Virus record (IMG/VR): IMGVR_UViG_3300020183_006727
Source: an uncultured virus (IMG/VR IMGVR_UViG_3300020183_006727)
Lineage: Duplodnaviria > Heunggongvirae > Uroviricota > Caudoviricetes
Strand: one strand, 5' to 3'
Length of the DNA: 64,000 nt
Shown: one piece after another, positions 1-57,158 of the stretch
Layout of the letters: each line of letters begins with the position of its first letter
Position numbering within the stretch: the stretch's first letter is position 1
Position numbers and translations under genes: made by a program
The notes under the pieces: model-generated
What the model was told of the DNA's origin: nothing
What the model saw: only the letters and a program-made list of their open reading frames with translations
Databases searched by the model: none

Positions 1-2
1 CC

Positions 3-80
3 ACGGAGATGGGTGGCAGTGCTTACCTTGCCACGATGCGCGGGAACACCGAGGCGATCGTCAAGGCGCTTCAGCCGTGA
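3..80 (+). CDS. C-terminal end of a metal ABC transporter substrate-binding protein (ZnuA/TroA-like), partial at window edge
   Basis: Frame 3 reads TEMGGSAYLATMRGNTEAIVKALQP*, resembling the 'Y..MMR.N...I..AL' C-terminal helix of metal-binding SBPs; its stop overlaps the next start (GTGA). Confidence 0.6.
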   Translation, partial: TEMGGSAYLATMRGNTEAIVKALQP

Positions 81-358
81 AGGACACGGCGCTCTCCTAC
101 GGAGGTCGTCATCTGCATGCGCCCGATCCGAGTGCGCCCGCACTCGCGCTCCACAGTGTTGCAGCGGGGCATCCCGGTGCTGCACCGGTCCTGCATGATG
201 TCAACTTTGTATTGCCCGCCGGCAAGCGCTTCGCGCTTGTAGGACCCAATGGTTCAGGCAAGAGCACTCTTCTGAGGACTGTGGCGGGACTTTTGACGGC
301 ACGCGGCGGAGATATCCGCCAAGAAAGCATGCCTGGAGGGAGGCGGTGGATCGGTTGA
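77..358 (+). pseudogene. Truncated ABC transporter ATP-binding subunit (N-terminal third only)
   Basis: VLHDVNF...ALVGPNGSGKSTLLRTVAGLL Walker A; no Q-loop, signature or Walker B; similarity ends at about nt 320. Confidence 0.75.
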
Positions 359-425: not shown

Positions 426-458
426 ACCGGCGCGCAGCATTTTGATGACATAAACATG
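426..458 (+). promoter_or_regulatory. First copy of the ACCGGCGCGC-N20-ATG element (other copies start at 3230, 4983, 5479, 6312, 6876, 8380, 9356, 9911, 10673, 11383, 12488, 13023, 13659; off-register copies at 2448, 4245)
   Basis: Conserved 10-12-mer beginning exactly 30 nt before an in-frame ATG in 14 cases, counted by hand. Confidence 0.85.
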
Positions 459-638
459 AAACAGAACATCAACAATCAGGAAACGGCTGACGAGCGTTTC
501 CGCAAGATGGTAGAGGACGATCTCCGCATGGTGATGGATATGCGTCGTCTACTGGATCGTGTGTTCGGTACGATCACCAACCCTACGACCTCGACCAACA
601 AAGACATCAATACCGAGGTCAGAGTGTCTGAACGATGA
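456..638 (+). CDS. Hypothetical protein
   Basis: ATG at motif+30; overlaps the next ORF (ATGA). Confidence 0.65.
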   Translation: MKQNINNQETADERFRKMVEDDLRMVMDMRRLLDRVFGTITNPTTSTNKDINTEVRVSER

Positions 639-841
639 TAGCAGGATTCGGCATGAAGATCAGAAACATGATGATCGTTACGGGCGCAATAATCGCCTGC
701 CTACTAATCTCGTTTCTCCTCAATGTTGTGTTCCTGTGGGTGTGCGCCATGACTGTGCAGAGTTTCGGGATTATCGTCCCTGCCGCTAGTGTCGCCATTG
801 TTACCACGGTGATAGTCTTTTTCAGGATTTGGAGGTTTTGA
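635..841 (+). CDS. Small membrane protein (2 TM)
   Basis: Two hydrophobic stretches; coupled to neighbouring ORFs. Confidence 0.6.
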   Translation: MIAGFGMKIRNMMIVTGAIIACLLISFLLNVVFLWVCAMTVQSFGIIVPAASVAIVTTVIVFFRIWRF

Positions 842-1356
842 TGGCTATTTCTAACACCTACACGCCGAAGCAACTCGAAGATGTCCGCAAGAAGATGCAC
901 TCATCTCGCAGCAGGCTCAAGACAATGCTGTGCCACATCCCAGGTGGATGGATTCCTTCAACCCGTCTTGACGAGAACCTTCACACAAAAGTCGCCAACG
1001 GTCGTTGGGAGCGCATCCCCCATTGTAGGGTTCGTATCCTCCGTTCTGTGGTGCGTGACGGCAAGAAATCATGTCCAGTCTATGTGGAGTGGATATTCCC
1101 CGTGGGCAAGGTTCCTACGGTGGATGATTTTACGAAGATTGGTCGCCGATCATTGCGCTATTGGCGCGATGGTCTTGATGAGGAATCTCTTGCAAATGAC
1201 ATCCTGGATATACAGGCTGCATCCGTCGAACTCCCCAAAATCATTGAGATATTGCCGAACATCGCCCGTCTGTGCCACCCCGATCCTCTTGTGAACTTGC
1301 TGGGCGAGGGTGGGTGGAAAGAAGCCCGTAAGGGTATCCGAAAGAAAAAGCAATAG
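841..1356 (+). CDS. Hypothetical protein
   Basis: ORF with GGAGG upstream of ATG 841. Confidence 0.65.
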   Translation: MAISNTYTPKQLEDVRKKMHSSRSRLKTMLCHIPGGWIPSTRLDENLHTKVANGRWERIPHCRVRILRSVVRDGKKSCPVYVEWIFPVGKVPTVDDFTKIGRRSLRYWRDGLDEESLANDILDIQAASVELPKIIEILPNIARLCHPDPLVNLLGEGGWKEARKGIRKKKQ

Positions 1357-1428
1357 TGGAAAAAAGATTCAAGAAATCCCAGTGAAGCGGTTTCTTGGGT
1401 CGTATTCTTGTCCAATCAGGAGACAAAG

Positions 1429-1767
1429 ATGACGATTGATGAGTGGATTGCAGAGTACAGGCCGATGCCCCACCCCCTCGGTGAGGAGCATGGTTTCGAT
1501 GTTGACGGAAAGGCTTGTCTCATAGAGGCTTATGAGACTAAAGCCCTCGAAAGAGTCCCTCACAGGCAACTTTGGGCGCTCGTTGAGAACGACGAAGGAG
1601 ACATGGTCATCGTCGCTGGTATGCGCAAGATCAATGTCATCGGCTATCTACAAACCGAAGAATCTTGGGAAGTCGGGGATGAGATGACAGAACCCGAAGC
1701 CCTCCATGAAGATAGTGAACCTAATCATGAAGATTGGGAAGTGGAATGTCAGGATGATGAAAGTTGA
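1429..1767 (+). CDS. Hypothetical phage protein, probable paralog of 9016-9303
   Basis: AGGAG RBS; shares T-I/F-D-x-W...W(A/T)...G...NVIGY pattern with 9016-9303. Confidence 0.7.
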   Translation: MTIDEWIAEYRPMPHPLGEEHGFDVDGKACLIEAYETKALERVPHRQLWALVENDEGDMVIVAGMRKINVIGYLQTEESWEVGDEMTEPEALHEDSEPNHEDWEVECQDDES

Positions 1768-1795
1768 AAATCAACAGATAAAGAAAGGCAAAGAA

Positions 1796-2026
1796 ATGTC
1801 AGTTCGCACAGTTGCAGACCTCAAGTTGGGAACACGCCCACGTAATGTCCTCACCCGTATGTTCGGTGAGCTTGAGCAAGTCGAGATAAGTGTCCTCACC
1901 GCCATGTCTCGTTTGGAACTCCTTGACCAGAGGTCGATGGGTAAGACGAGCCTTCATGAGATCGAGGAGCGTCTTGGGCAGTATGGCCTCCGCCTCCGTG
2001 ATGTAAGTCATAGTAGCAATGTCTGA
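1796..2026 (+). CDS. Stand-alone RNA polymerase alpha-subunit C-terminal domain (alphaCTD)-like protein
   Basis: VADLKLGTRPRNVL...LTAMSRLELLDQRSMGKTSLHEIEERLGQYGLRL fits the alphaCTD pattern (L.L..R..N.L ... ELL...n.G.kSl.EI...L...GL.L). Confidence 0.75.
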   Translation: MSVRTVADLKLGTRPRNVLTRMFGELEQVEISVLTAMSRLELLDQRSMGKTSLHEIEERLGQYGLRLRDVSHSSNV

Positions 2027-2100
2027 TTGCAGAATGTGTTGGGGCTTCGAGGTACAGTCTGTGCCTTGAGTTCCCCCACGCACCGCATCTATGTCCAGGC

Positions 2101-2442
2101 ATGAGTACTAGTATCACAATATCGGCAGAAATATATTCGGATGACGGCAGGTCAGGGGCTCAGTTTGATGCGTTGCCGTGGTTTGAGATGGCCACCGAAG
2201 CATCTGTGAAGGAGTTGGCGGACTGCGGTTGGTGTTGCTGTCGTGCGGCAGACAGGGTTGCGCGCGACCATCCCGACCCGAGGCGTGAAATAGCCACGGT
2301 GCTTGACTACATAGAAACCATAAATAACAGCGGACACGCGAAGATCGGCTATGAGGTTTCAGTCGATTATTCCGCTGCCGTGCAATGGCTCAAGCAGAAC
2401 CGTCCAGAGTGGTCCTGGATCGACGAGTTGGAGCAGGCATAG
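2101..2442 (+). CDS. Hypothetical protein
   Basis: 113-aa ORF in the co-oriented array. Confidence 0.7.
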   Translation: MSTSITISAEIYSDDGRSGAQFDALPWFEMATEASVKELADCGWCCCRAADRVARDHPDPRREIATVLDYIETINNSGHAKIGYEVSVDYSAAVQWLKQNRPEWSWIDELEQA

Positions 2443-2491
2443 GATCAACCGGCGCGCAGGGTTTGACGCACCAATTTGGGGGGAAAGAATC

Positions 2492-2863
2492 ATGCCTAAA
2501 GACCATTCAGGTAGACATGTTTCTGAAGTGCGTAGGCTCCTCATCAAGCATGCGGAGAGCCGTTTGCTGCCACTCGGATGGAAAATCAACGCCAGGAGCA
2601 TGAACGCTTCCTTTGATCTTGGGCCACGGCGGCTGATAATCAAGTTCAAGGCGTGGACCACCACCATGACACCAGATATCTCCAAGAGTCGTACCATCAA
2701 GACCGAAGAACTGAAGACCCTGTCTTATCTTCATTCAGAGGCGTTCAGAACCCACCCAATGGCCATGGAGGTGGTTCAAGAACTTCACAAACTGCTGTAT
2801 CTTGACCATTTAGGAGCAATGGTTATCATGGCGGATATGGGAGGAGATAGAGTCAATGCCTGA
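2492..2863 (+). CDS. Hypothetical protein
   Basis: ORF after the motif at 2448. Confidence 0.6.
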   Translation: MPKDHSGRHVSEVRRLLIKHAESRLLPLGWKINARSMNASFDLGPRRLIIKFKAWTTTMTPDISKSRTIKTEELKTLSYLHSEAFRTHPMAMEVVQELHKLLYLDHLGAMVIMADMGGDRVNA

Positions 2864-3246
2864 TGGATCATAAAAGCAAATCTTCTGAACTCCATATACA
2901 GTTGGGCTTTAGTCTCTCTTCTACTTCGCCCGGCACGGTTTCGTGGCTGCTCCGTGGCAACGGATTCAGCGTGAGGTTGCCAGTGGATGGTTGGAAGCAG
3001 TCACTCTGGAGTTCTTTCAGTAACTGGTTCGACTCACATTGTGTGAGTATCGAATATCCCTTGCGCACCGAGATCCATTTCTGCGACCAGAAAATGAGCT
3101 TCTTGGTGCGTGGCGACGAAGACCTGGAGAACCTATGCCGATTCCTGAAAGATCCAATGCTGCTCATGTCGGAAGTTGATGACGAAGAAGGGACGACTGC
3201 CAGCCGGCTGCTGGCTGCCCTGAACAAGCACCGGCGCGCAGAATAG
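2863..3246 (+). CDS. Hypothetical protein
   Basis: Coupled to the previous ORF (TGATG). Confidence 0.6.
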   Translation: MDHKSKSSELHIQLGFSLSSTSPGTVSWLLRGNGFSVRLPVDGWKQSLWSSFSNWFDSHCVSIEYPLRTEIHFCDQKMSFLVRGDEDLENLCRFLKDPMLLMSEVDDEEGTTASRLLAALNKHRRAE

Positions 3247-3259
3247 GAGACACATAGAC

Positions 3260-3784
3260 ATGAGTACCACATTTGATGTTGACGAGTTCACCCGCAAGCG
3301 TCGGGAAGAGTTCGAGCGGATCGCCGATATTGTCGGAGACATCTCGCTCTCTTCATTCAAGCACTACAGTCGCATGTCGGAAGAGACTTACTGCTTCAAC
3401 ACCAAGGTCAGATACAAGGGCAAACTGATCGGGGATGCAAGCAATCGTGGCTGTGGAGGGATGACCGACTTCTACAACAAGGCGGGGGTTCAGGTTGATC
3501 TGTACGACCGTCTGAAGGATTCATGCACCGAACTTCGCATGGACGACATCATCGACCACCTCGTCAATGAGGAGATTGAGCGTAAAGAAAACGCCAAGAT
3601 GGAGCGTAGTTTCAACAAAATTGCAGTCACCGCACACGAGATCGGAATCACCGTCTTTTGGAGATCCAACGCAGATGGCAGCCGTGAGGAGATCACCTCT
3701 ATCAATACGAGGGATCAAGCGAGGGTTGACAAGGCTGTTGCTGATATGATTCAGCATGGTTGGCACATCATCCGTAAGGCATAA
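3260..3784 (+). CDS. Hypothetical phage protein
   Basis: ATG at motif+30; AGGAG; 'ASNRGCGG' motif. Confidence 0.75.
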   Translation: MSTTFDVDEFTRKRREEFERIADIVGDISLSSFKHYSRMSEETYCFNTKVRYKGKLIGDASNRGCGGMTDFYNKAGVQVDLYDRLKDSCTELRMDDIIDHLVNEEIERKENAKMERSFNKIAVTAHEIGITVFWRSNADGSREEITSINTRDQARVDKAVADMIQHGWHIIRKA

Positions 3785-3793
3785 GCACATCGC

Positions 3794-4276
3794 ATGGCAG
3801 GTCTGCCCCTCCAGCGTCTCGGAACGGGGCAGACCTCCATGCGAAAAAACACCATGTTTACATTCACCACATCCAAAGGGAAAAAGCTTCAGGAATCGGA
3901 CATCCTCAATGTCCTCAATGACGGCGCGCATGAACTTCATGCGACAGAGCTTGGGGTGAGGAAGATTTCACGACAAGTTGCGGAGATGATTGAACGGTCG
4001 CGGCTTGAGGAGGCGGGCGTACAGGGCAAGATCTTTCATGTTGCCACCTATCTTGGCGGTAACCGTGACATCCGAATCACCGCAGACGGCGGAGACCACT
4101 TTTGGGTGCGTTGGGATGACGAATCAGACACCTACATGGCCATGTCCACCCCTAGGTTCATCCCCGCCTACCCAGACCCGTCACGCATCCCGCCTGTTGA
4201 CGGCAGGGAGAACTTCCTGGCGGCGGAGGGATCGGGGAGCATTCACCGGCGCGCAGCTGATGGGGAGCAGGGGTGA
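3794..4276 (+). CDS. Hypothetical protein (start uncertain)
   Basis: ORF filling the gap in the array. Confidence 0.55.
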   Translation: MAGLPLQRLGTGQTSMRKNTMFTFTTSKGKKLQESDILNVLNDGAHELHATELGVRKISRQVAEMIERSRLEEAGVQGKIFHVATYLGGNRDIRITADGGDHFWVRWDDESDTYMAMSTPRFIPAYPDPSRIPPVDGRENFLAAEGSGSIHRRAADGEQG

Positions 4277-4277
4277 G

Positions 4278-4859
4278 ATGAACACCTACGCCACACGTGC
4301 CGATGCAAGTCCGACCTACTTCACAGTCGTTCGTGAACTACGCAGGACTACTGCTGCACTGGAATGGGCACACGCCCGTCTCCGTCAGTGTGGGGTAGAA
4401 TGGAACAGGCAGGTGGAGGAAATGGAACAGGCAGGACTGAAACTGCCTGACTGCACGGTGCGGTCCTACCACGGGTGTGTGAACAGACCGATACTGCCTG
4501 ACTGCACGGTGCGATGTGAAAATGATGAAGATCCGCACCGGATCGATCCGTCGCACTGCTTGAGGACGGCACTCAGGGCCGCATCTGCCCTCTGCCTTGG
4601 TTCCCTGGCTCTCCTAGCCCACCGCAGCCTCCTTGCAGGAGACAGAGAGACTGTCAAAAGGTGTGAAACCCTCGCTTTCTGCCTGTCGGGCAGCCACCTG
4701 TCAGCCGATAAAATCGCCGAATCGTGGGATCAGGTCAAGATGGGGATCAACAAGGACGAGAAACCCGAGTTCCACAGCGAAATCGTCTGTGGGATAGTCG
4801 AGACTGCGGTCGATGAGGCAGTCATCAACCTCGTAAGATTGATTGCGGGCAACGCCTGA
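4278..4859 (+). CDS. Hypothetical protein with internal LPDCTVR duplication
   Basis: ATG 33 nt after the motif at 4245; followed by a terminator. Confidence 0.6.
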   Translation: MNTYATRADASPTYFTVVRELRRTTAALEWAHARLRQCGVEWNRQVEEMEQAGLKLPDCTVRSYHGCVNRPILPDCTVRCENDEDPHRIDPSHCLRTALRAASALCLGSLALLAHRSLLAGDRETVKRCETLAFCLSGSHLSADKIAESWDQVKMGINKDEKPEFHSEIVCGIVETAVDEAVINLVRLIAGNA

Positions 4860-4884
4860 ACCTGTAATACGAACCCCCGGAATG

Positions 4885-4927
4885 GACCCAGTGTAGAGTG
4901 CAGACTCCACTGGGTCTTTTGTTTTTT
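4885..4927 (+). terminator. Intrinsic terminator
   Basis: GACCCAGTG..GAGT-loop-ACTC-CACTGGGTC stem followed by TTTTGTTTTTT. Confidence 0.75.
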
Positions 4928-5012
4928 GTGCCAGAATGACCTCCTGATAAACTTCGAGTCCGGCTCGTTCGACGAAGTGTGAACCGGCGCGCAGAATGTT
5001 GAGAACATAGAC

Positions 5013-5477
5013 ATGAACCAAGAAGCAGGCGACCATCCTGGTGGTGGTGGTGGTCAAAACACTATCGACACCATCGTCCATACATCACAGGACTCCCGCA
5101 TCATCGACGCAGCCAGGGCGGCATCTATGCTCCTGTCCCAGCGTGAGACGGAGTTCACCGACCCCTACACCTGTCACGACCCCATTTTTGTGACGATCAT
5201 CCACGACCTGCTGATCCTTGCGACCATGATGGGGGTGGACGCAGATGAGATCATGAAAACAAGCATGAAGTGGTATCAGGACACCATGAAGGACGTGTGG
5301 GAGGATGAGATCACCGAGACATGGGCGGAACGCCGCCGCAAGTGGGCGGTCGAGGCCGCATCAGATTTCCACAGTCTCTACCACGACACAAAGGACCCCC
5401 TGCACCTGATGGCCTGCTTCGAACGGCTGGCCAACCGCGAGAAGAAAAACACGACGCTCGAGAAGACCCCAGTGTGA
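5013..5477 (+). CDS. Hypothetical protein
   Basis: ATG at motif+30. Confidence 0.7.
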   Translation: MNQEAGDHPGGGGGQNTIDTIVHTSQDSRIIDAARAASMLLSQRETEFTDPYTCHDPIFVTIIHDLLILATMMGVDADEIMKTSMKWYQDTMKDVWEDEITETWAERRRKWAVEAASDFHSLYHDTKDPLHLMACFERLANREKKNTTLEKTPV

Positions 5478-5508
5478 CACCGGCGCGCAGACGACAGAGG
5501 ATATGGAC

Positions 5509-5808
5509 ATGGCAAACAACAGCCATCTCAAGTTCGTCAAGTCGGGCGAGGTCTCCGTCGATTCGGGGCAGATCCTCCTGATCGACCCCTCCTACATCAC
5601 AGAATCGTTCCCCAACGGGGTTGGGTACCGTGCCCTCAACTTCAATCATGTGTGTCGTGTCACCCTCCGCGATTCAGGCTGTGGTGGGGTGGCGGGGCTT
5701 GGTTTCGCTACTTCGTCGGGTTACGGTGATGGGGTCTACCCCGTCTATGTTGCCCGTAGTGGGGGGCGCATCGCTTCCATTCGCATCGACTTCATCACGG
5801 AGGAATGA
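5509..5808 (+). CDS. DUF4241-like protein
   Basis: VDSGQ..DP.Y and SSGYGDGVYPVY motifs; ATG at motif+30. Confidence 0.6.
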   Translation: MANNSHLKFVKSGEVSVDSGQILLIDPSYITESFPNGVGYRALNFNHVCRVTLRDSGCGGVAGLGFATSSGYGDGVYPVYVARSGGRIASIRIDFITEE

Positions 5809-6242
5809 CCATGAGCAACAGACATGACAGCGAGGAAGATGATGCGTTGCTTGTCTACGACGACAATGCGAAGATCGAGAAGTATGGGTTCGTCATCCAC
5901 TATGTCCCCAATGACGACTTCGACCACTCGCCAACGGGCGTGAACATCCACACCCACGGGCTTCGCAACATCAACAACCATCCAGATTTTCAGATCACAA
6001 TTCCTCTACCGATGCATATCGCAAGCAGAATCATGCACCGTCTTTACGAACTTGTGGAAGGCGGCGAGGTGTTCTGTGCGGGTGGAGAATCTGACAAGGT
6101 TCTCGAAGGAAACATGAAAGTTGGGTTCATCGAGGTTCAAGAGTGTGGTCGCACCGTACTGCGTGTCATCATTCCCGACCAAGATGGGAACCACAAACGA
6201 TCCACCATGAACCGCCAATGGCGCATTGCGCAGTTTGGATGA
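5805..6242 (+). CDS. DUF4262-like hypothetical protein
   Basis: IEKYG...V...HTHGL....HPD pattern. Confidence 0.55.
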   Translation: MTMSNRHDSEEDDALLVYDDNAKIEKYGFVIHYVPNDDFDHSPTGVNIHTHGLRNINNHPDFQITIPLPMHIASRIMHRLYELVEGGEVFCAGGESDKVLEGNMKVGFIEVQECGRTVLRVIIPDQDGNHKRSTMNRQWRIAQFG

Positions 6243-6341
6243 CAGCGCACAGCCACCGCTCCGCATCGCCTGACCGACAACCACCCACCGAGGCGTCACC
6301 TGCGGACACATACCGGCGCACAGAATCTTGAGGGCATGAAC

Positions 6342-6803
6342 ATGAAGAAGAAGATGGTTCTCATCGGCACGGATTGCACGGTCAATGTCGTGAATAACGA
6401 CGGTTATGACTCGCTCGTCGCGCACATCGGCGGATACATCGAAGCCGTGCAGATGGACGAACGCCATCTTGCCTACATCGATGAGGAGGGCAAGCTGAAG
6501 AGGCTGCCCCCCAATCCCGTCGCCACCCTCATGTGGCGCATCTGGCATCCCCATGTGACGGACATCCTCTGCGGCCCATGCCTCATCGTTGGCAGGGTTG
6601 ATCCCAAGACAGGGGAGGTTGATGGGGAGGATCACGAACACGACCAGACCATTCTGACCCTTGCCAGGAGCATCGCATCACAGATGCGGATGCGGGTGGA
6701 TGGGCAGGACACCTGCGTGGCCTGTAACAGGGGCATCGACGGGGCAGGGGTGCGCTCTGCGGTTGGAACCCTCGGCGTTATCCTCTGCGAGGATTGTGCG
6801 TAA
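6342..6803 (+). CDS. DUF3846-like protein with C-terminal CxxC...CxxC
   Basis: IGGYIE...DEEGKLKRLPPN..AT...D.L.GP; ATG at motif+30. Confidence 0.7.
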   Translation: MKKKMVLIGTDCTVNVVNNDGYDSLVAHIGGYIEAVQMDERHLAYIDEEGKLKRLPPNPVATLMWRIWHPHVTDILCGPCLIVGRVDPKTGEVDGEDHEHDQTILTLARSIASQMRMRVDGQDTCVACNRGIDGAGVRSAVGTLGVILCEDCA

Positions 6804-6905
6804 AAGACCTCGACGAAGACAATTCGACTTGAAAACCTCTCCGCCGAAGGTCACACCGGCGCCGCCGGAGGTCACACCGGCGCGCAGCACCGCGACCACA
6901 TAGGC

Positions 6906-7385
6906 ATGGGACAATACCACTACATCACCAACCTCACCAAGCGTCAATACATCAATCCGCACCAGATCGGCTCTGGTCTCAAGATCATGGAACAGGTCGG
7001 GTGGGAGGCTTCCCCCTCCACCGCCCTCTTCCTCCTCCTCGCCTGTTCCAACGGGCGCGGAGGCGGGGATGCGGGACACCACCCACTTGTCGGTCACTGG
7101 GCTGGCGACCAGATCGCCGTGATTGGTGATTACTCCACCCCAACCGACATCCCTGGACATGATGCGGCCGCCATATACCAGTCCATCATGGGCATGGGGG
7201 ACAGGCTTCTCGACCTGATTCACGGCTCGGAGTGGTGCAACATCTCCCCGCAGGTCCGCGAGATGATGACCGCCGCATTGGGCGCACGGTATTCCCTCAA
7301 TGAGTACCAGCAGGGGAGAGATCTCACCCTCGACACCGCAGGTTGTATTTTCGTTGAGATATCCGCTGGGACCGACCGCGAATAG
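6906..7385 (+). CDS. Conserved hypothetical phage protein
   Basis: MGQYH...NL.K...GLK..E ... G.WAGD.I..IGDY; ATG at motif+30. Confidence 0.75.
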   Translation: MGQYHYITNLTKRQYINPHQIGSGLKIMEQVGWEASPSTALFLLLACSNGRGGGDAGHHPLVGHWAGDQIAVIGDYSTPTDIPGHDAAAIYQSIMGMGDRLLDLIHGSEWCNISPQVREMMTAALGARYSLNEYQQGRDLTLDTAGCIFVEISAGTDRE

Positions 7386-7472
7386 TCCACAGTCCACAGA
7401 AAGGTAAACCATGAAACGCAAAATCAAACAAATGACCTATGGCGAATTGCAGCAGTTCGAAGGAGGTGCAGC

Positions 7473-7871
7473 GTGAATCTTCCCTACCCTCTGTATTTCC
7501 TCGTTCCGCATCAAACGCCGCCATCTGTCGTCGTTGATCTGCCCGACGACGCGCACGATTATCATTGCGTCATCAAATGCACAACGACCAAACAATTGCT
7601 GCGGCTCGCGCACCCTCTGCGATACGACGACCAACTGCGTCACCAGGGCGCAGAGATCGCAGTGTTGGCGCGGCGGGAACTGCGATTGCAAGGACGGCAT
7701 CAACCACTGCAATACAAAATCGCAGAAGTTCGCGGCGATACGGGTGATTGGGATGTTGTTGCAGAGTTTGAGGCTCGCAACGATGATGCGGCAAACGAGT
7801 ACGCAGAGGAAAACTACGCACATCTCGATTGGTATGTGCTCGATGAGAACAACATGAATATCAACGGGTGA
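7473..7871 (+). CDS. Hypothetical protein
   Basis: GTG with GGAGG upstream; overlaps a 21-codon ORF at 7411-7476. Confidence 0.55.
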   Translation: MNLPYPLYFLVPHQTPPSVVVDLPDDAHDYHCVIKCTTTKQLLRLAHPLRYDDQLRHQGAEIAVLARRELRLQGRHQPLQYKIAEVRGDTGDWDVVAEFEARNDDAANEYAEENYAHLDWYVLDENNMNING

Positions 7872-7935
7872 CGGCCCCGAGCCCTGCGCCGACTCGCTCG
7901 GCGCATCGCTCGCGGTCGGCAACGTGCCGCCCTCG

Positions 7936-7967
7936 CACAGTCCACAGTCCACAGTCCACAGTCCACA
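7936..7967 (+). repeat. 7-bp tandem repeat (AGTCCAC)x4; two copies also at 7384-7397
   Basis: Direct reading; both runs lie just upstream of an RBS and ATG. Confidence 0.85.
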
Positions 7968-7982
7968 ACAGAAGGGCAAACT

Positions 7983-8147
7983 ATGAGATACCCGCGTTCA
8001 TGCAAGAAGGACAAGCCTGACCTTTCTAGACTCCGTGAGGAGGGTTACAAGATCACCCTTTGGCACGGCGAAGGAGACACCCTGTATATTGCCAGACGCA
8101 GAAGTGGCAAGAACTTGACCACCGTGCCGAAGCCCGTGCGAACCTGA
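7983..8147 (+). CDS. Small hypothetical protein (54 aa)
   Basis: GAAGGG then ATG; translated by hand as MRYPRSCKKDKPDLSRLREEG... Confidence 0.4.
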   Translation: MRYPRSCKKDKPDLSRLREEGYKITLWHGEGDTLYIARRRSGKNLTTVPKPVRT

Positions 8148-8230
8148 TCGCAGGTCAGGTACGGGGGTGGGGCATCTCCATCACATCTGGTGAGGCAGGA
8201 GGGACAACCTGCGACGGGCAACCCGTCTAG
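8126..8230 (+). pseudogene. Remnant 3' half of a paralog of 10703-10912
   Basis: EARANLIAG...ISITSGEAGGTTCDG versus EARANLIAG...ISIISVEAGGCTRDG; no in-frame ATG; same downstream hairpin. Confidence 0.7.
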
Positions 8231-8255
8231 CCATAACCCATGCTGGCATCCCGAC

Positions 8256-8290
8256 ACCGTCGCTCCGAAAGGGGCGGCGGTTGTCGTTTC
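8256..8290 (+). terminator. GC hairpin with GAAA loop and TGTCGTTTC tail (near-identical copy at 10941-10975)
   Basis: ACCGYCGCTCC-GAAA-GGGGCGGCGGT. Confidence 0.65.
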
Positions 8291-8409
8291 TGGGGATATG
8301 AATATATCGTTACCTACAAGTACTGGTAGTATCCGTACCAGTTCGAACACTAATCCCAGTAGCACGGACCAGAGCCTCAACCGGCGCGCAGGGTTTGGAG
8401 GACGCAAGC

Positions 8410-8961
8410 ATGGAAACATCACACACACCATCAATCAGTATCGGAAACATCATCGTTTCGGATGAGGAACTCGCGGAGGCAGGCAAAGCCTTCATCAAGA
8501 GCCTCAACATCCCAGAGGGTCCCCATAACATCGAGATGGACTTCCACATGAAAGCGGAAGTCAACAAGGGGGTCGCATACGAGCAGTCCATGTGGCAGTC
8601 GGCAAAGCCCGAACAACTGCTGCTCCTCGCTGTCGCCATGAGTGGTGCAGTCGGTGATGTCCTCACCAATATCGCCGCACTTGGATACGAGGAATATGTC
8701 TCCCGTGTGAAGGAGATCGAGTCCCGTGCATCCCGTCTATCAGGGAAGAAGGGGGCAGAGGTGCTTGCTGCGGCAGAGGCAGCAGAGGCGAAACATCCCT
8801 CAAAGCGCACCGCCGAGGATGCCGAGCTTGTCCTGTGCCTGAAGGCGTACCGTCAGCAGGGTCGCATCGACTCCGTGATCGAAACACTCCGTCAGTCAAC
8901 CAAGACGCTCAAGTCGGGTCGCACCGATATTCCCGCCATCGCTGTGAAGATGATCCGCTAG
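8410..8961 (+). CDS. Hypothetical protein
   Basis: ATG at motif+30, GGAGG. Confidence 0.75.
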   Translation: METSHTPSISIGNIIVSDEELAEAGKAFIKSLNIPEGPHNIEMDFHMKAEVNKGVAYEQSMWQSAKPEQLLLLAVAMSGAVGDVLTNIAALGYEEYVSRVKEIESRASRLSGKKGAEVLAAAEAAEAKHPSKRTAEDAELVLCLKAYRQQGRIDSVIETLRQSTKTLKSGRTDIPAIAVKMIR

Positions 8962-9015
8962 AGGATCACGCACCGCAACATCACAAACTGCACAATAGCA
9001 ACGGAGAGATGGCAC

Positions 9016-9303
9016 ATGAAAACCATCACTTTCGACAGTTGGATGGACACCTTCAACCCAATCCTTGGCAGAGGACAGGACTGCGGGAGCGTTGATGGCG
9101 TGGGAATCGGCTTCGGCTCCTACTTTTCTGCACGGCAGATGGCGCAGAGACTTGGTCTGCTTGACGGTGAACCGCATATTTGGACGATCCATCACAACGA
9201 TGAGGATGATTGTTGGCTCATCAGCCCAGGCCCTGAGTGCGTCAATGTCATTGGATACGTCGTCACCCGCAAACCGTGTGGGGATTTGATGGTCATTTGG
9301 TAG
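9016..9303 (+). CDS. Hypothetical phage protein, probable paralog of 1429-1767
   Basis: GGAGAG RBS; shared pattern with 1429-1767. Confidence 0.7.
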   Translation: MKTITFDSWMDTFNPILGRGQDCGSVDGVGIGFGSYFSARQMAQRLGLLDGEPHIWTIHHNDEDDCWLISPGPECVNVIGYVVTRKPCGDLMVIW

Positions 9304-9385
9304 CATCCGTACTCATGTCGCACTGCTTCGAGACACGAGGCGCCTGCGGGCACGTACCGGCGCGCCGAGTCTGGAGGATATGAGC

Positions 9386-9814
9386 ATGGATGACCACACC
9401 GAAGAAGAAAGCATCATCACCGATCCCCGCGATGATTGGAACCTTGGCATCATGGCCTGCTTCCACCGTCGTTACAATCTGGGGGACAGGGTGACCGACC
9501 TGCGTGGCGGGACCATCACCGTTGAGGAGGCACGGCGCATCGAGGCGACGAACACCTGCCCCGTCGCTATCGGCGTGTGGGAGCAGTGCGTCGTGCTGCC
9601 CCTCTATCTCTATGACCATAGCGGCATCACCATGAATACCACGGGCTTTGAGTGTCGCTGGGATTCTGGACAAATCGGCATCATCTACGCACCTTACAGC
9701 CGCATCCGAGAGTGCTACGGAGTCAAGCGTGTGACCGCCAAAATGATCGAACGGACGAAGGCAGCACTGCTTGCCGAAGTGAATGACTATGACTCTTGGC
9801 TGCTGGCCGCATGA
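9386..9814 (+). CDS. Conserved hypothetical phage/MGE protein
   Basis: LPLYLYDHSGITM...F.C.WDSGQ.G motif; ATG at motif+30. Confidence 0.75.
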   Translation: MDDHTEEESIITDPRDDWNLGIMACFHRRYNLGDRVTDLRGGTITVEEARRIEATNTCPVAIGVWEQCVVLPLYLYDHSGITMNTTGFECRWDSGQIGIIYAPYSRIRECYGVKRVTAKMIERTKAALLAEVNDYDSWLLAA

Positions 9815-9940
9815 ACACAAGCATGGAAACATTCATCACAGAGATGATGAACCGAGATGAACTCAACCCGATGGTGAAACTGGCAAGATTGGCGGACTGA
9901 CCAACACGCCACCGGCGCGCCGAGTCTGGAGGATATGAGC

Positions 9941-10147
9941 ATGGATGACCACACCATGAGTACATACCTCCTAAAGTACTTCAACGACGGCGAATCAGAT
10001 GCCATCGGTCTGCCTTTGGTAGAATGGTTCATCGTTGAAGCAGATGGCCTAGACCACGCGGTAGAGCAACTTATGAATGCTTACCCCGAAGCAAACTTGG
10101 TCGTAGGATACAAATGTGTTCCTGTGACCCCAGTCATTCAAGGATGA
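9941..10147 (+). CDS. Hypothetical protein sharing its 45-nt leader and start with the 9386 gene
   Basis: ATG at motif+30. Confidence 0.6.
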   Translation: MDDHTMSTYLLKYFNDGESDAIGLPLVEWFIVEADGLDHAVEQLMNAYPEANLVVGYKCVPVTPVIQG

Positions 10148-10165
10148 CCGTTGGAGGACTGTTGC

Positions 10166-10645
10166 ATGACTGAACCCGAACAACCTTTCTCATCACGCCT
10201 GTCGTCGCCGCAACGCGCCGACATCCTCAATCGCCTCACCATCGAACGCAAACGGGCTATTGACGCACTCTTGGCCGATTGCCTTGAAGATCGTATGGCG
10301 GCCACGCTGAAATACGACCTTGAGGTGGCTGCACGGGTGACGCAACGATCACAACTGGAGAGGATTGGCTATTCGTTTCCTTCCCACGAATGTGCAGCAG
10401 CGAAGCACCCTGTGGGGGCTAACTCATGTGACATCGGGTGGCTTCCAAACACCGCATTGGTCAACGCCCTTGCCGAGTTGAATGTGTTCGTTGTGAATAC
10501 AGGGGGGATCGACAATGTGACTCTGTATCAGCGATTGATTACAACCCTTTCAGATGTCATCCCCGACCTTCCCCCATCCGATGATGTCAAAGAATATCTG
10601 GATATGAATGGAACGAATGAAGATCCACGATTCACGAAGGCTTGA
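10166..10645 (+). CDS. Hypothetical protein
   Basis: GGAGG RBS. Confidence 0.7.
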   Translation: MTEPEQPFSSRLSSPQRADILNRLTIERKRAIDALLADCLEDRMAATLKYDLEVAARVTQRSQLERIGYSFPSHECAAAKHPVGANSCDIGWLPNTALVNALAELNVFVVNTGGIDNVTLYQRLITTLSDVIPDLPPSDDVKEYLDMNGTNEDPRFTKA

Positions 10646-10702
10646 CGTCGGCCTCCTCCAGATGGAATGTCAACCGGCGCGCATGGGCTGGATGACTGTC
10701 AC

Positions 10703-10912
10703 ATGACCACACACATCGCCACCCTTGAATCGGCGCACTTCACCTTCACGGCTGCCGCACCGTCCAAGGTCGAGGCCCGTGCGAATCTGATTGCAGGTCT
10801 GGAACGGCACAGCGAACAGTACCGACTCCCCGATAGGTGGTACGAGGAGGATGACATCTCCATCATCTCCGTGGAGGCGGGGGGCTGCACCCGCGATGGG
10901 TCGAACATCTGA
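10703..10912 (+). CDS. Hypothetical protein
   Basis: ATG at motif+30; remnant paralog at 8126. Confidence 0.7.
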   Translation: MTTHIATLESAHFTFTAAAPSKVEARANLIAGLERHSEQYRLPDRWYEEDDISIISVEAGGCTRDGSNI

Positions 10913-11150
10913 CCAAAAGCCAACGCTCTGGCACATCAACACCGCCGCTCCGAAAGGGGCGGCGGTTGTCGTTTCTGGTGATGAGATCAAAAATGAACAC
11001 GGTACTAGAACTGATGGACACCATCGAGGGACCTGCGGGCGTGAACCGGCGCGCAGCGCACCACCCACTGCGCGCCGGTCGTCCACTCCCAAGGCCACCT
11101 GGCGAACAACTGTTCGTCTTGTGACCATCAAATAATCTGGTTTGGGGGTC

Positions 11151-11194
11151 TTGACAAACCGTCACCACCGATGTAAACCCTTGGGTTTACATCG
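11151..11194 (+). promoter_or_regulatory. Sigma70-like promoter overlapped by a 26-bp palindrome (operator-like)
   Basis: TTGACA-N17-TAAACC; CGATGTAAACCC-TT-GGGTTTACATCG at 11169-11194. Confidence 0.45.
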
Positions 11195-11412
11195 CCATTG
11201 ACGGTAGCCCTGATTCAACCCACCCACCGCACCACCGACCCACTGCGCACCTGTGGCGATGCGGGCTTTGCCTTCGGTAACACCGAGCTTGACCTTGACA
11301 GACCGTCAGTCCCGATGTCATCGCCAATGACTGATTCACCTCCTGCCACCACCTGGCTGCCACCACCTGGCAGACCTGATGCTCCGGCGCGCAACGGATG
11401 GGGGATGTGATT

Positions 11413-11721
11413 ATGGAACTGATGACCTCTGAAATCACGAAGGTGATACCCGAGCTCGGCGGACAGGAAGGTAAGGGTATGGATGCGGTCGTCTATGTAA
11501 AGTGGTTCAACCCCACGGGCGGTGAGACATGGTGGATCACCGAATACGACCAGAAGACAAAAGTTGCTTTTGGCTATGTGACTGGCATGACCGAGGACGA
11601 ATGGGGCTACATCAGCCTCAAAGAAATATCAAGCGTCCGCGTCCGCTATGGACTCGGCATCGAACGCGACCTCGGATTCACCCCAAAAACCCTGGGTGAG
11701 TGTCTGCGCAAGCGCACTTGA
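11413..11721 (+). CDS. DUF2958 family protein (copy 1)
   Basis: VK.FNPTG..TWWITEYD...FGYV.G...EWGYISL.E....GLGIERDL.F; ATG at motif+30. Confidence 0.8.
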   Translation: MELMTSEITKVIPELGGQEGKGMDAVVYVKWFNPTGGETWWITEYDQKTKVAFGYVTGMTEDEWGYISLKEISSVRVRYGLGIERDLGFTPKTLGECLRKRT

Positions 11722-11740
11722 CAAATGCTTCTTTTCCATC

Positions 11741-11778
11741 GCAGCGGCCGTCCCTTCGGGGGCGGCTGCTGTCGTTTC
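11741..11778 (+). terminator. GC hairpin with TTCG loop and TGTCGTTTC tail (copy at 14017-14053)
   Basis: GCAGC(G)GCCGTCCC-TTCG-GGGGCGGCTGC after each DUF2958 gene. Confidence 0.65.
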
Positions 11779-12517
11779 GGATGAACAGACGCACCGCCAG
11801 CCGCGCGCCGGTTGACCAGAAAAACAACTGGGGACCAACAAGGTGCTTGTTGATGGCGGAGAGGAACTCGGCCCTCTGGGGACCTGCGGGCTGGCACCGG
11901 CGCGCTGCGCACCGCCAGCCGCGCGCCGGTTGACCAACCTTCCGGCCAGGATTTTTTGGGGCGGAGAATCTTCGTGACGAGAACTGACACACCATCAACG
12001 ACTCCAAAATATTGAGGTTTCCGCACAACCACGATGGGAAACTCGATCTGATGAATCTGACCAAACCTCCACGAAGATTGGGAGGGGTTCGATTGGGGTG
12101 ACATGGCACAGGTGCATGGCTGGCAAATCATCCGTCAGACACAGCACGTTGGGAGGAATACATCAACAGATCACCGGCGCGCCACACGCCGTCGGCCGCC
12201 CACCGCGTGCAGATGGGCTGGGGTTACAGACACCATGCGAGGTGCGGGTCTTCAGGAGGACACGAATAGAAAGGACGAGCTGGAACAAAACGGAACCGGC
12301 GCGCAACCCGTCGCGTGTGGCGTGCCTGTCATCTTGCCCTCTGCTGTCTTTGGTTGGCATCAAGAGGTGGTCTTCTGGCGTGCCACACACCGCAAGAGGC
12401 GCACCGCGTTCATCAGGCAGCACACCGCCACCACCACAACAACACAGATCCCGACAGGAACTCGGCCCCCTGGGGACCAGCAGCGTGACCGGCGCGCAGG
12501 GGGTGGGGTACATGGTT

Positions 12518-12721
12518 ATGGAGACATCACAAGCAGAAACCGAACGGATGGTGGACAGCCAACCGAAGCCGACACAGAAACAACTCGACATCCGCGAAGA
12601 AATGGAGGAGGCACTCAGTCGCCTGCGTGCTGATCGTGCGCTTTCTGGTCACCACCTTGACCTCATCCTCCGCAGTCCGAAAGGGATACTCACCCTTGCG
12701 CGGATGGGGCTTTCAGGTTGA
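12518..12721 (+). CDS. Small hypothetical protein (paralog A)
   Basis: ATG at motif+30; EALSRLRA...LILRSP.GIL.LA.MG shared with 13053. Confidence 0.7.
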   Translation: METSQAETERMVDSQPKPTQKQLDIREEMEEALSRLRADRALSGHHLDLILRSPKGILTLARMGLSG

Positions 12722-12810
12722 TGGGAGGCGGGGCGGCGGGGAGACGGGGAGGCGGAGCGTAGGGGGGGTCGGGGAGGCGGAGTGGCGGGAAGGGATGCTG
12801 AAACTTCATG

Positions 12811-12838
12811 AACCTCTGCCGTCTGGCAGGGGTTTTTT
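12811..12838 (+). terminator. Intrinsic terminator
   Basis: AACCTCTGCC-GTCT-GGCAGGGGTT followed by TTTT. Confidence 0.65.
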
Positions 12839-13052
12839 CATATGGACATGGGCGGCGGAACCCACATGGAGAACTCGGCCCTGGGGACCTGCGTGCGGTA
12901 ACCGGCGCGCTGCGCACCGCAAGAGGCACACCGCGTTCATCAGGCAGCACACCGCCACCACCACAACAACACAGATCCCGACAGGAACTCGGCCCTGGGA
13001 AACCGGTTACCTGCCCGCGTGAACCGGCGCGCAGGGGGTGGGGGACATGGTC

Positions 13053-13262
13053 ATGGAGACACCACAAGCAGCAACCGAACGGATGGTGGACAACCAACCG
13101 CAGCCGACACGGGGAAAGCCCAACATGAATGAAGAGCGGAAGGAGGCACTCAGTCGCCTGCGTGCAGGGGAACCGCTGTCCAGTCGTCAACTCAACCTCA
13201 TCCTCCGCAGTCCAAACGGGATACTCGCCCTTGCACAGATGGGGTGGTTCACCCCAGCCTAG
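13053..13262 (+). CDS. Small hypothetical protein (paralog B)
   Basis: ATG at motif+30. Confidence 0.7.
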   Translation: METPQAATERMVDNQPQPTRGKPNMNEERKEALSRLRAGEPLSSRQLNLILRSPNGILALAQMGWFTPA

Positions 13263-13688
13263 AAGATCAGAGGAGTTGGATTGGGGCGACATGGATCTCT
13301 GCCATCGGGCAGGGGTCCATGTCTGTTTATATGGCATGGGTGTATGGCTGACAACTCATCCGCTCACACATGGCATGGTGTTGACAACTCACCATTGATA
13401 CACATCAAGTTGAAGAAACATGGCTGCCGACGACGGCTCGCCGGCGCGCGTCGCACCACCCCCTGCGCGCCGGTGTCGCCATAATAAAAACAACAAAGCT
13501 ATGGTAAGGACGTTGCTGCCGAAACCGGCGCGCTGCGCACCACCCACTGCGCGCCGGTGTCGCACCGGAGGCCTTGGGCGCGAAGCATTTGTTGTTGCTT
13601 ATGATTGTGCGGGCAACCCACATCTGCTTTGGCGGGTGAGAAGTTTTAGCAAACATCAACCGGCGCGCTGCGGATGGGGGACATGATT

Positions 13689-13997
13689 ATGAAACTGATG
13701 ACCTCCGAAATCAAGAGAAAAATCCCCGCATTGCGGGCGCAAGAGGGGCTAGGTTGGGATGCGGTTGTCCATGTCAAGTTGTTTGACCCAACGGGTTCCG
13801 CAACATGGTGGATCACCGAATACGACCCCGAGGAGGAAATCGCCTTCGGATACGTGACGGGTATGGTCGAGGACGAATGGGGCTATGTCAGCCTCAAAGA
13901 AATATCAAGCGTCCGCGTCCGCTATGGACTCGGCATCGAACGCGACCTCAGCCACAGACCCAAACCCCTGAGTGAGTGCCTGCGCAAGCACACTTGA
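13689..13997 (+). CDS. DUF2958 family protein (copy 2)
   Basis: Paralog of 11413-11721; ATG at motif+30. Confidence 0.8.
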   Translation: MKLMTSEIKRKIPALRAQEGLGWDAVVHVKLFDPTGSATWWITEYDPEEEIAFGYVTGMVEDEWGYVSLKEISSVRVRYGLGIERDLSHRPKPLSECLRKHT

Positions 13998-14428
13998 TAG
14001 GGGGGATATTTTCACGGCAGCGCCGTCCCTTCGGGGGCGGCTGCTGTCGTTTCGGGGGTACACGCATCCCCCTGCGCGCCGGTTGATGTAGACTAAACAG
14101 ATTCAGCCAGATGTCATCGCTGTCTGATCGGGGAGACGGAGACTCTAACCACTTGTGGTGTGCAGTCCACCCTCCAGAACCCCGCACCGGCGCGCTGCAC
14201 GCATCCACATGCGCGCCGGTTGCCCGTCGCCGAAAAGAGTTAGCAAGATCTTGTTGTCTGATCGGAGAGACGGAGACTCTAACCACCTGCCGCGTGCAGT
14301 CCACACCCGACATCGCTGACCTGCTCACCAGGACCCCGCACCGGCGCGCTGCACGCATCCACATGCGCGCCGGTCGGGCTATCGTAACAACTGGGTGATC
14401 GAGGGAACTCGCGGCTTCAGCATGACTC

Positions 14429-14566
14429 CATCTCTGGGTAGCGTGGGGCGACATCTCTGGGTAGCGTGGGGCGACATCTGTGGGTAGCGTGGGGCGACAT
14501 CTGTGGGTAGCGTGGGGCGACATCTGTGGGTAGCGTGGGGCGACATCTGTGGGTAGCGTGGGGCGA
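14429..14566 (+). repeat. Tandem repeat, 6 x 23 bp CATCT(C/G)TGGGTAGCGTGGGGCGA
   Basis: Six contiguous copies with no spacers. Confidence 0.97.
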
Positions 14567-15196
14567 CGGGGGATCCGTCTGTTGGAGTCACCCAACCACA
14601 ATCATTGATGATCAGGAACTCCTACGTATCGGTCGACCGGCGCGCCACACCACACCACATGCGCGCCGGTGCATAACCCGGGTACAGAAACTCAAGCTGC
14701 ACGAGTCAGCATAATGCTCTGCTGACCATCTGCTCGAGCGGACGGGCCAACTTGACCCGCCTCCGGCGCGCTGCACGCATCCACATGCGCGCCGGTGTGA
14801 ACACCGGCCGGTGTTGCACTCCAAGCACCTTCTCGTTCTTCGCAACATGTCATGGGTGCAGCGTGCTGCACGCATCCACATGCGCGCCGGTGTGAACACC
14901 GGCCGGTGTTGCACCGTCTCTTTCTTCGCAACATGTCATGGGTGCATACCCCCACCCCGGGGGGGTCTTATGGCAGTTTGATTCCCCCCACCGGGGATAC
15001 CTTAGGCCCAAGCGCCCTCATCTTCATTTTCCCTGGGACGGGGATACCTTTTGTGAACTGGGGGGTAAGATATTTGGCAACCTGTCGGGACGTGGGTGGT
15101 ATGGGTGGGGCTGGAGTCGTAATTTTGAAAAAAGGGGATACCTTAGCTTGGAGGTAAGAATAGATAATTCTCATCAGCACAAAGGAGGATTCATGT

Positions 15197-28663: not shown

Positions 28664-28667
<4 letters not shown>

Positions 28668-57151: not shown

Positions 57152-57158
57152 CTTACAT

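Follow-up and report, generated by a model that had tools for sequence, protein, structure and literature searches.

At the left end of the DNA analysed here, a 64,000-nt stretch of an uncultured tailed phage (IMG/VR record IMGVR_UViG_3300020183_006727, Caudoviricetes; hereafter the window), a G+C-rich core, ACCGGCGCGC, recurs in front of small genes. An earlier note, made from the letters of the window, had proposed a novel promoter and cassette system. Our analysis establishes the motif as a real, strand-specific and strongly conserved signal linked to gene starts. Judging from sequence, we put at about 55% the probability that the module ACCGGCGCGC-A-G-R-R represents a phage-specific class of promoter fused to a compact Shine-Dalgarno (SD) leader. 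We infer the promoter role, the position of the transcription start, the reader of the signal and the "early" timing of the genes, early expression being suggested by gene content only.

With at most one mismatch allowed, ACCGGCGCGC matches 38 times in the window, as against 1.63 matches expected from shuffled sequences (shuffle maximum 7). Twenty-seven copies lie on the plus strand and 11 on the minus strand, and all fall within 426-14891. The window has no copy outside this interval, and none beyond 14,891 even when a 12-mer is searched at two mismatches; the four copies in the 130,267-nt contig G002 of the same phage all sit in its final ~420 nt, with none in the remainder; the earlier statement that the motif ends by 14.9 kb thus holds. 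The pattern motif-N20-ATG occurs 16 times where 0.01 occurrences are expected. Fourteen of these are the plus-strand sites listed previously, every one with its ATG at exactly +30, and the remaining two, on the minus strand, were excluded because their single mismatch falls inside the ATG. Two gene-heading copies are one-mismatch variants, at 6312 (ACCGGCGCAC) and 11383 (TCCGGCGCGC). While the 14 sites are real, that inventory overlooked 13 additional plus-strand copies (2448, 4245, 12173, 12295, 12901 and the left arms of eight palindromes) and the 11 inverted copies, eight of which are right arms of those palindromes. We delineated 29 genes on the plus strand of the array, 16 of them headed by a module (14 with the ATG at +30, one at +33 and one at +44), as follows.

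426..14891, plus strand: whole array, about 29 genes, 16 module-headed
426..458, plus strand: module (core, SD, ATG at +30), heads gene 456-638; homology with contigs G003 and L241rc begins exactly here
2448..2494, plus strand: module with longer leader (ATG at +44, own SD), heads gene 2492-2863
3230..3262, plus strand: module, heads gene 3260-3784; core within the 3' end of gene 2863-3246
4245..4280, plus strand: module with ATG at +33, heads gene 4278-4859; overlaps the end of gene 3794-4276
4983..5015, plus strand: module, heads gene 5013-5477; 66 nt past terminator 4902-4917; recombination junction in L241rc
5479..5511, plus strand: module, heads gene 5509-5808 (DUF4241-like)
6312..6344, plus strand: module, variant ACCGGCGCAC, heads gene 6342-6803 (DUF3846)
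6876..6908, plus strand: module, heads gene 6906-7385
8380..8412, plus strand: module, heads gene 8410-8961; past terminator 8256-8281
9356..9388, plus strand: module, heads gene 9386-9814; module and first 5 codons equal the 9911 copy
9911..9943, plus strand: module, heads gene 9941-10147
10673..10705, plus strand: module, heads gene 10703-10912
11383..11415, plus strand: module, variant TCCGGCGCGC, heads DUF2958 gene 11413-11721
12488..12520, plus strand: module, heads gene 12518-12721
13023..13055, plus strand: module, heads gene 13053-13262
13659..13691, plus strand: module, heads DUF2958 gene 13689-13997
12173..12182, plus strand: orphan core, no open reading frame (ORF) behind it
12295..12304, plus strand: orphan core, no ORF behind it
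12901..12935, plus strand: core followed by a decayed right arm (degenerate palindrome; families D1 and D9), heads no ORF

The genes behind the modules are mostly unrelated, as the earlier note had it, with the exception of two paralogue pairs, 11413/13689 (74% at the amino acid level) and 12518/13053 (65%), and of the modules at 9356 and 9911, which share an identical duplication that extends through the first five codons. A CCTGC box had also been reported upstream of several copies; it does occur within 25 nt 5' of 7 of the 27 plus-strand copies, compared with 3.7% of background windows, but is absent from the family-wide logo described below.

To define the anatomy of the module, an alignment was made of 45 copies that head genes, drawn from the window and from five related contigs. 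Positions 0-9 are at or near maximal information and positions 10-11 are high (A in 42 of 45, G in 39 of 45), followed by two purines, giving a conserved core of 14 nt, ACCGGCGCGC-A-G-R-R. In the 45-module logo, none of the 40 nt 5' of the core carries information; a second box is therefore absent. The bases at 17-22 are rich in G (GGAGG, GAGGA) and sit 8 nt before the ATG, and SD-like tetramers 5' of 110 other ORFs of the phage likewise peak at -15 to -9. Copies with longer leaders have a separate SD beside the ATG (window 2448 and 4245, G006 12475 and G007 28670). Because the 17-22 block lies 8 nt from the ATG and moves with it in the longer leaders, it is mainly a Shine-Dalgarno box. The looser "second element" that had been described as abutting the ATG is therefore chiefly this SD, and many copies have, within that element, an in-frame ATG 6 nt before the real one. 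In long-leader copies, where an initiation box would be expected to stay in place, a G-rich block persists at 15-23 in 13 of 44 cases against a background of 11%, in a class that includes misclassified GTG-start and short-leader copies. Leaderless mRNAs, also proposed, are rejected, since an SD at -13 to -9 implies short leaders. RNAalifold found no conserved RNA pairs across 35 modules, which argues that the signal is a primary-sequence site, and in Rfam no family reaches threshold, the four sub-threshold hits all lying away from modules. A chi-like or uptake-signal function was rejected by reasoning, as neither predicts a fixed distance to a start codon. No phage motif appears in the titles or abstract openings of a part of the papers containing the string ACCGGCGCGC, nor is the motif described in the records, mostly listings, of literature on jumbo and huge phage promoters.

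Relatives of the array were found by exact-motif pattern scans of IMG/VR and metagenome contigs, which otherwise returned mostly single chance matches. Motif-dense contigs include G003 (18.9 kb, 13 copies), G006 (18.9 kb, 18 copies) and G007 (33.8 kb, 15 copies), together with G004, G008, L201/L226, L241+L227 (one 20.4-kb contig), L263, L265, L237, L255, L266 and L239. After removal of identical contexts, 19 related sequences contain 156 unique copies, 130 of them non-palindromic. ORF starts over these copies concentrate at +30 (39), +31 (21), +32 (5), +24 (13) and +25 (8), the +24 and +25 classes being the in-frame ATG located 6 nt before the +30 or +31 ATG; in a random control, 153 of 11,400 positions gave +30 or +31. 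The preferred distance depends on the lineage, +30 in the window and L265 and +31 in G006 and L263. The rigid 30-nt spacing of the earlier note is accordingly a property of the 14 listed copies in this genome, whereas the clade as a whole uses +30, +31 and +32. In G007, two minus-strand modules head leftward genes with the ATG at +30, showing that the module follows gene orientation. The core is intact at orthologous sites within blocks that are only 72-79% identical, both in the set formed by window 426, G003 1727 and L241rc 1671 and in that formed by window 3230, G003 4571 and L241rc 4480. Larger module-headed genes in the relatives encode three RCC1-repeat paralogues, a MoxR-like AAA protein and a DUF2201 protein.

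Several side observations concern these contigs. The 20.4-kb contig L227+L241 places G007-type module-headed genes (RCC1, AAA, DUF2201) directly left of a window-type array, which gives the module-bearing region of the clade a length of ~20 kb or more within a single contig, and G007-like sequence is also present in the lake sequencing runs that contain the window (loose ends at 4983 and 5490). A tRNA-Arg(CCT) ends 12-13 nt before a module in L184 (12159-12233), L186 (1720-1793) and L263 (2751-2825). Related arrays also carry tRNA-Ser, tRNA-Gly, tRNA-Met and a transfer-messenger RNA (L185 13085-13426, tag ANESLMLQAA).

The positions of the modules relative to predicted terminators favour a DNA-level role. 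Seven terminator-like hairpins on the plus strand (five intrinsic terminator-like sites from a scan and two of repeat family D10) are followed by a copy of the core, and in six cases by a module-headed gene.

4902..4917, plus strand: terminator-like hairpin with T run, then module 4983
8256..8281, plus strand: terminator-like site, then module 8380
10941..10966, plus strand: terminator-like site, then palindrome 11045 and module 11383
11747..11787, plus strand: terminator-like hairpin (D10; absent from the scan list)
12810..12835, plus strand: terminator-like site, then core 12901 and module 13023
13288..13323, plus strand: terminator-like site, then two palindromes and module 13659
14022..14062, plus strand: terminator-like hairpin (D10), then the palindrome cluster

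The distance from terminator to core varies between about 60 and 440 nt, and most modules have no terminator ahead of them (e.g., 426, 3230, 5479 and 6312). The module is the sole recurring element between the terminators and the next gene. Sigma-70-like sites are not enriched (8 compared with 8.5 expected), and the earlier observation that the motif does not match sigma-70 was confirmed, there being no two-box geometry and nothing conserved 5' of the core. A two-box arrangement for sigma-70 or an extracytoplasmic function sigma factor was rejected, because taking the core as the "-35" and the AYAT block as the "-10" puts the start past the ATG. The window encodes a FliA/WhiG-like sigma factor at 57087-57983 (119 bits against a family cut-off of 189.6), with no link to the motif. 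The sigma-28 (FliA/WhiG) promoter consensus is TAAA, N15, GCCGATAA. A sigma-28 promoter was likewise rejected, as the module has a single box and CCGATA sites lack a consistent association with either an upstream box or genes. A search for a second promoter class elsewhere found no 8-mer 5' of at least 6 of the 110 ORFs, and 6-7-mers were weak.

On the promoter reading, the 14-nt block would be a DNA-level start signal, either the promoter itself or an obligatory site for a polymerase recruiter, serving one expression class of a freshwater megaphage clade by a route other than the sigma-70 two-box one. Transcription would begin at or shortly past the 3' end of the core, at module positions ~10-18, yielding leaders of 12-20 nt. 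Such a leader would consist of ~6 variable bases, the SD (GGAGG or GAGGA), 8 bases and the ATG, and the 30-32-nt distance would result from adding the SD-to-AUG distance of the ribosome to a fixed interval between promoter and start. Since the same module heads unrelated genes, it could double as short homology through which genes are swapped, lost and gained between related phages.

The inverted copies are organized differently. Eight palindromes between 11045 and 14796 have the form ACCGGCGCGC-N15-GCGCGCCGGT, that is, a core, 15 nt and an inverted core, and the orthologous contig L201 contains six elements of this type. Arms and 15-nt spacing are conserved, while the loops are variable and C/A-rich on the plus strand. 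As RNA, the palindromes would fold at -20.9 to -29.4 kcal/mol with 10-bp stems and 15-nt loops; none is followed by a T run or heads an ORF. A canonical continuation (A-G or A-T) is found more often behind the minus arm than behind the plus arm. These elements, with the lone inverted cores and a tandem repeat found among them, are given below, the palindromes without strand.

11045..11079: palindrome, -25.7 kcal/mol as RNA
11896..11930: palindrome
13440..13474: palindrome, left arm GCCGGCGCGC
13524..13558: palindrome
14186..14220: palindrome
14340..14374: palindrome
14636..14670: palindrome
14762..14796: palindrome, left arm TCCGGCGCGC
14857..14891: palindrome with decayed left arm, its right arm being the lone minus copy at 14882
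11803..11812, minus strand: lone inverted core just past the terminator of DUF2958 gene 11413-11721 (D8)
14074..14083, minus strand: lone inverted core just past the terminator of DUF2958 gene 13689-13997; same arrangement in L201 (2466)
14429..14566, plus strand: six tandem 23-nt repeats (CATCTGTGGGTAGCGTGGGGCGA) amid the palindromes

Candidate roles for the palindromes are a sequence-specific stop or insulator acting on whatever reads the core, convergent or antisense promoters, repetitive extragenic palindrome (REP)-like elements and part of an origin. The 23-nt tandem repeats are iteron-like and could mark an origin or simply break assemblies. In L201, three abutting cores at 2664-2692, in the order plus, minus, plus, create a 20-bp perfect palindrome, GCGCGCCGGTACCGGCGCGC. 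A palindrome in contig L002 was set aside as a chance occurrence in an unrelated, high-GC, prophage-like contig.

Gene order differs among the window, G003, L241rc and L265. Window positions 426-3784 are collinear with G003 and L241rc, at 41-90% amino acid identity per gene, and the order diverges beyond. The window was compared with G003, L241rc, L201 and L265 through homology blocks 200 nt or longer. Of the 18 block starts, 11 are no more than 20 nt away from a module start (expectation 7.2%, binomial p 5.5e-9); the 12 gene starts that lack a module account for only one. A single module in L241rc links what lies 5' of window 4983 to the gene behind window 6312, and the three intervening genes are missing there. 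Duplications of a module with the first codons are found not only at window 9356/9911 but also at G003 17115/17584. These comparisons support the view that modules provide homology for the exchange of accessory genes between related phages, and the PeSL-like shuffling suggested in the earlier note is borne out to the extent that modules mark the left edge of rearranged blocks.

Contigs from sequencing runs bear on the same subject. Three of four DNA runs have a contig with a module like that at 13659 (13659-13682), followed by five other bases and a gene like that at 7983, with the ATG at +30; the window counterpart of this gene lacks a module. Because the depth ratio of this sequence to the array varies between runs, the contig probably belongs to another phage. 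Joints with short sides in the run contigs (5011>5468 and 5016>5451) were treated as module-to-module cross-matches and not counted as evidence.

A dedicated polymerase or factor had been postulated as the reader, and that idea remained an inference when we looked for the genes. No match to PF00562 was found, with a working control; the absence of PF00940 (T7-like polymerase) matches from the 130-kb contig is uninformative, its control having been silent (0/14 genomes). Twenty window ORFs that Pfam assigned weakly or not at all were scanned for catalytic motifs, and a methyltransferase-like ORF alone had a DxDxD string; across the further ~81 kb, 6 of 36 large ORFs contain such strings. Neither Pfam nor PHROGs gave a polymerase match for 25 large ORFs outside the window, and a PDB sequence search with four giant ORFs returned no polymerase. 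One giant ORF had a best score of 0.79 in the ESM Atlas, which is a lead at most. Pfam scans of 69 window ORFs turned up no integrase, transposase or recombinase domain.

A number of these results weigh against the promoter reading or the exchange role attached to it. For a promoter, the core is unusual in being nearly pure G+C and lacking an obvious A+T-rich segment for melting. The palindromic and lone inverted copies head no genes and are not predicted by a simple promoter model. No RNA polymerase gene was found in the window and a further ~81 kb (~145 kb, about one third of the genome), and the runs listed as containing window 3001-13000 include no RNA run. The invariance of the motif across contigs is partly ascertainment, given the exact-motif search, so that conservation at orthologous sites is the independent point. 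With regard to exchange, modules show no excess of block ends (4 of 19, p 0.18), the block starts may partly reflect the module being a conserved island before a gene, and in L265 a gene like that at window 6906 is followed by one like that at 1429 with no module between them, a module-free rearrangement.

Some of the same evidence could be accommodated if the motif acted in RNA, which we consider unlikely. Long transcripts would then be made from a few promoters, and the core would be a site for a sequence-specific endoribonuclease, a stabiliser or a translation activator or repressor at a set distance from the ribosome-binding site, with the paired arms forming stable stems. Consistent with this are the strict strand specificity, the distance that is fixed to the SD and AUG and to nothing upstream, and the composition of the core, too rich in G+C to look like a promoter. 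Several cores also directly follow the upstream gene or sit within it, no terminator intervening (window 3230, 4245 and 5479), the paired arms fold at -21 to -29 kcal/mol, and the DUF2958 cassettes have a forward core on their 5' side and an inverted core past the terminator. However, the gene-heading copies are surrounded by no conserved pairs, Rfam offers no family at threshold, and a nuclease candidate was not identified. Action in RNA would also need upstream promoters, which were not found: the module alone recurs past terminators, and sigma-70-like sites are unenriched.

Alternatively, the core may be an operator for a phage or host DNA-binding regulator, with the real promoters weak and unconserved nearby and the inverted pairs acting as dimer-site roadblocks or sinks. 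The internal dyads of the core (CCGG, GCGCGC), the exact inverted pairs with a 15-nt spacer in both the window and L201, and the restriction of the core to one genome block speak for an operator, a function that we nevertheless hold to be quite improbable. Gene-heading copies are single and asymmetric (ACCGGCGCGCAGRR) and lack a half-site partner, no other conserved promoter-like element stands at a fixed distance, and the 25-bp centre-to-centre spacing of the pairs (~2.4 turns by arithmetic) would put the half-sites on roughly opposite faces of the helix. Very improbable, in our estimation, is a recombination or mobility site (attC-like, REP- or REPIN-like, or homing) used by a dedicated recombinase, for which the position before the ATG would be a by-product of cassette joining. 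The variable gene order with blocks beginning at modules would be explained, as would the duplications of module plus first codons (window 9356/9911, G003 17115/17584), the palindromic copies with the plus-minus-plus triple of L201, and the DUF2958 cassettes flanked by inverted cores. Yet the site lies 5' of genes at ribosome-binding distance, most genes have one copy, block ends do not coincide with modules, and the window ORFs yielded none of the enzymes in Pfam scans; homologous recombination between 30-60-nt modules suffices for the L241rc junction.

The promoter reading can be extended to a bolder scheme, which is possible but doubtful. The clade may use a transcription apparatus (e.g., an injected virion polymerase or a non-sigma specificity factor) for which the 14-nt, nearly pure G+C block is the promoter and which initiates 12-20 nt ahead of the AUG; the face-to-face copies with their 15-nt spacer would be a stop, an insulator, a convergent promoter or part of a transcription-primed origin beside the 23-nt iterons, and the module would be the unit of gene exchange.

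How does the module compare with known systems? T4-type PeSL (promoter early stem-loop) cassettes (PMC2839356, PMC4122927) join a strong sigma-70-like promoter and a terminator stem-loop in one unit, and likewise are repeated short modules before small, mostly unknown genes of a plastic region, with copy exchanges that explain indels and replacements and with accompanying terminators. Exchange between adjacent PeSL copies also yields mini-circles. Unlike PeSLs, the modules here have no -35/-10 elements but a single G+C-rich 14-mer at a near-fixed distance from the ATG, and the terminators are not fused to them but lie 60-440 nt away. The exchange itself has its counterpart in the 11 of 18 block starts at modules and the module junction of L241rc. 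Promoters of the T7, SP6 and Syn5 type are contiguous, asymmetric blocks of 15-23 bp with purine-rich first transcribed bases, reused per temporal class. The module shares with these single-subunit polymerase promoters a contiguous asymmetric block, the lack of an upstream box, the purines that follow and the use at many genes, but its core lacks the A+T-rich melting segment of the T7 type.

Promoters of the N4 virion RNA polymerase are small hairpins (5-7-bp stem, 3-nt loop) heading early genes. Inverted repeats accompanying early transcription signals in a large phage would be a point in common; here, though, the gene-heading copies have no inverted partner, and the palindromes, with 10-bp stems and 15-nt loops, head no gene. 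In integrons, attC sites lie 3' of promoterless cassettes and need the IntI integrase, and REPs need a REP-associated tyrosine transposase (RAYT). Small unrelated genes parted by a repeated element, and G+C-rich intergenic palindromes of ~35 nt past terminators, recall both. In contrast to both, the element here is 5' of genes that have their own SD, and the window Pfam scans contain no IntI or RAYT. For Thermus phage P23-45 (10.1101/2022.12.01.518664), the passages place a strongly conserved motif 5' of the mapped start sites of pre-early genes and propose an injected virion polymerase as its reader; near the left genome end, termination sites carry another conserved motif, of 26 nt. Both phages would thus have a conserved motif before the gene cluster of one region and a second element at transcript ends, to which the palindromes are a possible analogue. 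A difference is that the virion-polymerase motif of P23-45 is rich in A+T, and that for this phage the polymerases are known and transcript starts and stops have been mapped; the passages describe no fixed ATG distance (10.1101/2022.12.01.518664). The module differs from all the named systems compared, yet falls within a known sort of thing.

Megaphages are almost all uncultured, and the timing of their gene expression is essentially unknown. The 14-nt sequence would be a handle with which to capture the polymerase or factor that reads it, and the module would list the genes of one expression class, among them candidates for host takeover or anti-defence (DUF2958, DUF3846, DUF4262 and the alpha-CTD mimic described below). 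It would also be a natural case, from beyond the T4 group, of accessory genes exchanged at promoter modules and, if the reader is found, a promoter-plus-leader of ~30 nt would make a useful orthogonal expression part.

The array encodes small ORFs, including DUF2958 (two copies), DUF3846, DUF4262 and DUF4241 proteins and a 76-amino-acid protein at 1796-2026 that resembles the RNA polymerase alpha C-terminal domain (alpha-CTD). The latter scores 24.2 bits in Pfam (cut-off 23.8), matches NCBIfam rpoA models at E 2e-7 and is conserved in G003, L241rc and L265; by its sequence, it is possibly a decoy for the host polymerase. Beyond the array, a Pfam scan of the window ORFs identified NUDIX, glucose-6-phosphate dehydrogenase, superoxide dismutase, ThyX, ribonucleotide reductase, a C5 cytosine methylase, sugar-nucleotide enzymes, a Tad3-like protein and a sigma-70-family protein. 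G+C content is 56% in the array (426-14900) compared with 47% in the rest of the window (14901-64000), and 53-62% in related arrays.

Two IMG/VR contigs, G001 (70,638 nt) and G002, are near-identical to the window from ~14.5 kb on, and both end at the tandem repeat at 14.43-14.57 kb. Their CheckV completeness (16% for G001 and 29% for G002) implies, by arithmetic, a genome of roughly 440-450 kb. Outside the window, G002 encodes a large terminase, portal, head protease, tail proteins and several giant ORFs. Because of these structural and packaging genes and the estimated genome size, the source is a tailed megaphage. No near-identical record was found among GenBank phages, and close relatives of a 1118-amino-acid protein came from the same phage only. 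A query with window 3001-13000 placed the array in 20 DNA runs labelled lake or freshwater metagenome, and contigs from four DNA runs confirm it in several lake samples.

Just left of the first module, window 1-358 encodes a truncated piece of an ABC-transporter ATPase with a Walker A sequence (GPNGSGKST). Contigs of four DNA runs that cover 1 to ~318 have a 3-8x higher word depth and five differing positions before they diverge, and the contigs covering the array in the same four runs start at 266-297. The fragment is either a captured piece of a host gene or a chimeric join at the contig start. The Tad3-like (anti-Thoeris) protein is encoded at 28664-29161 and has no link to the motif. Finally, the heptamer AGTCCAC occurs twice at 7384-7397 and four times at 7939-7966, directly 5' of the module-less genes 7411 and 7983, each set followed by an AGAAAGG or AGAAGGG SD, and these repeats may be a different upstream element.

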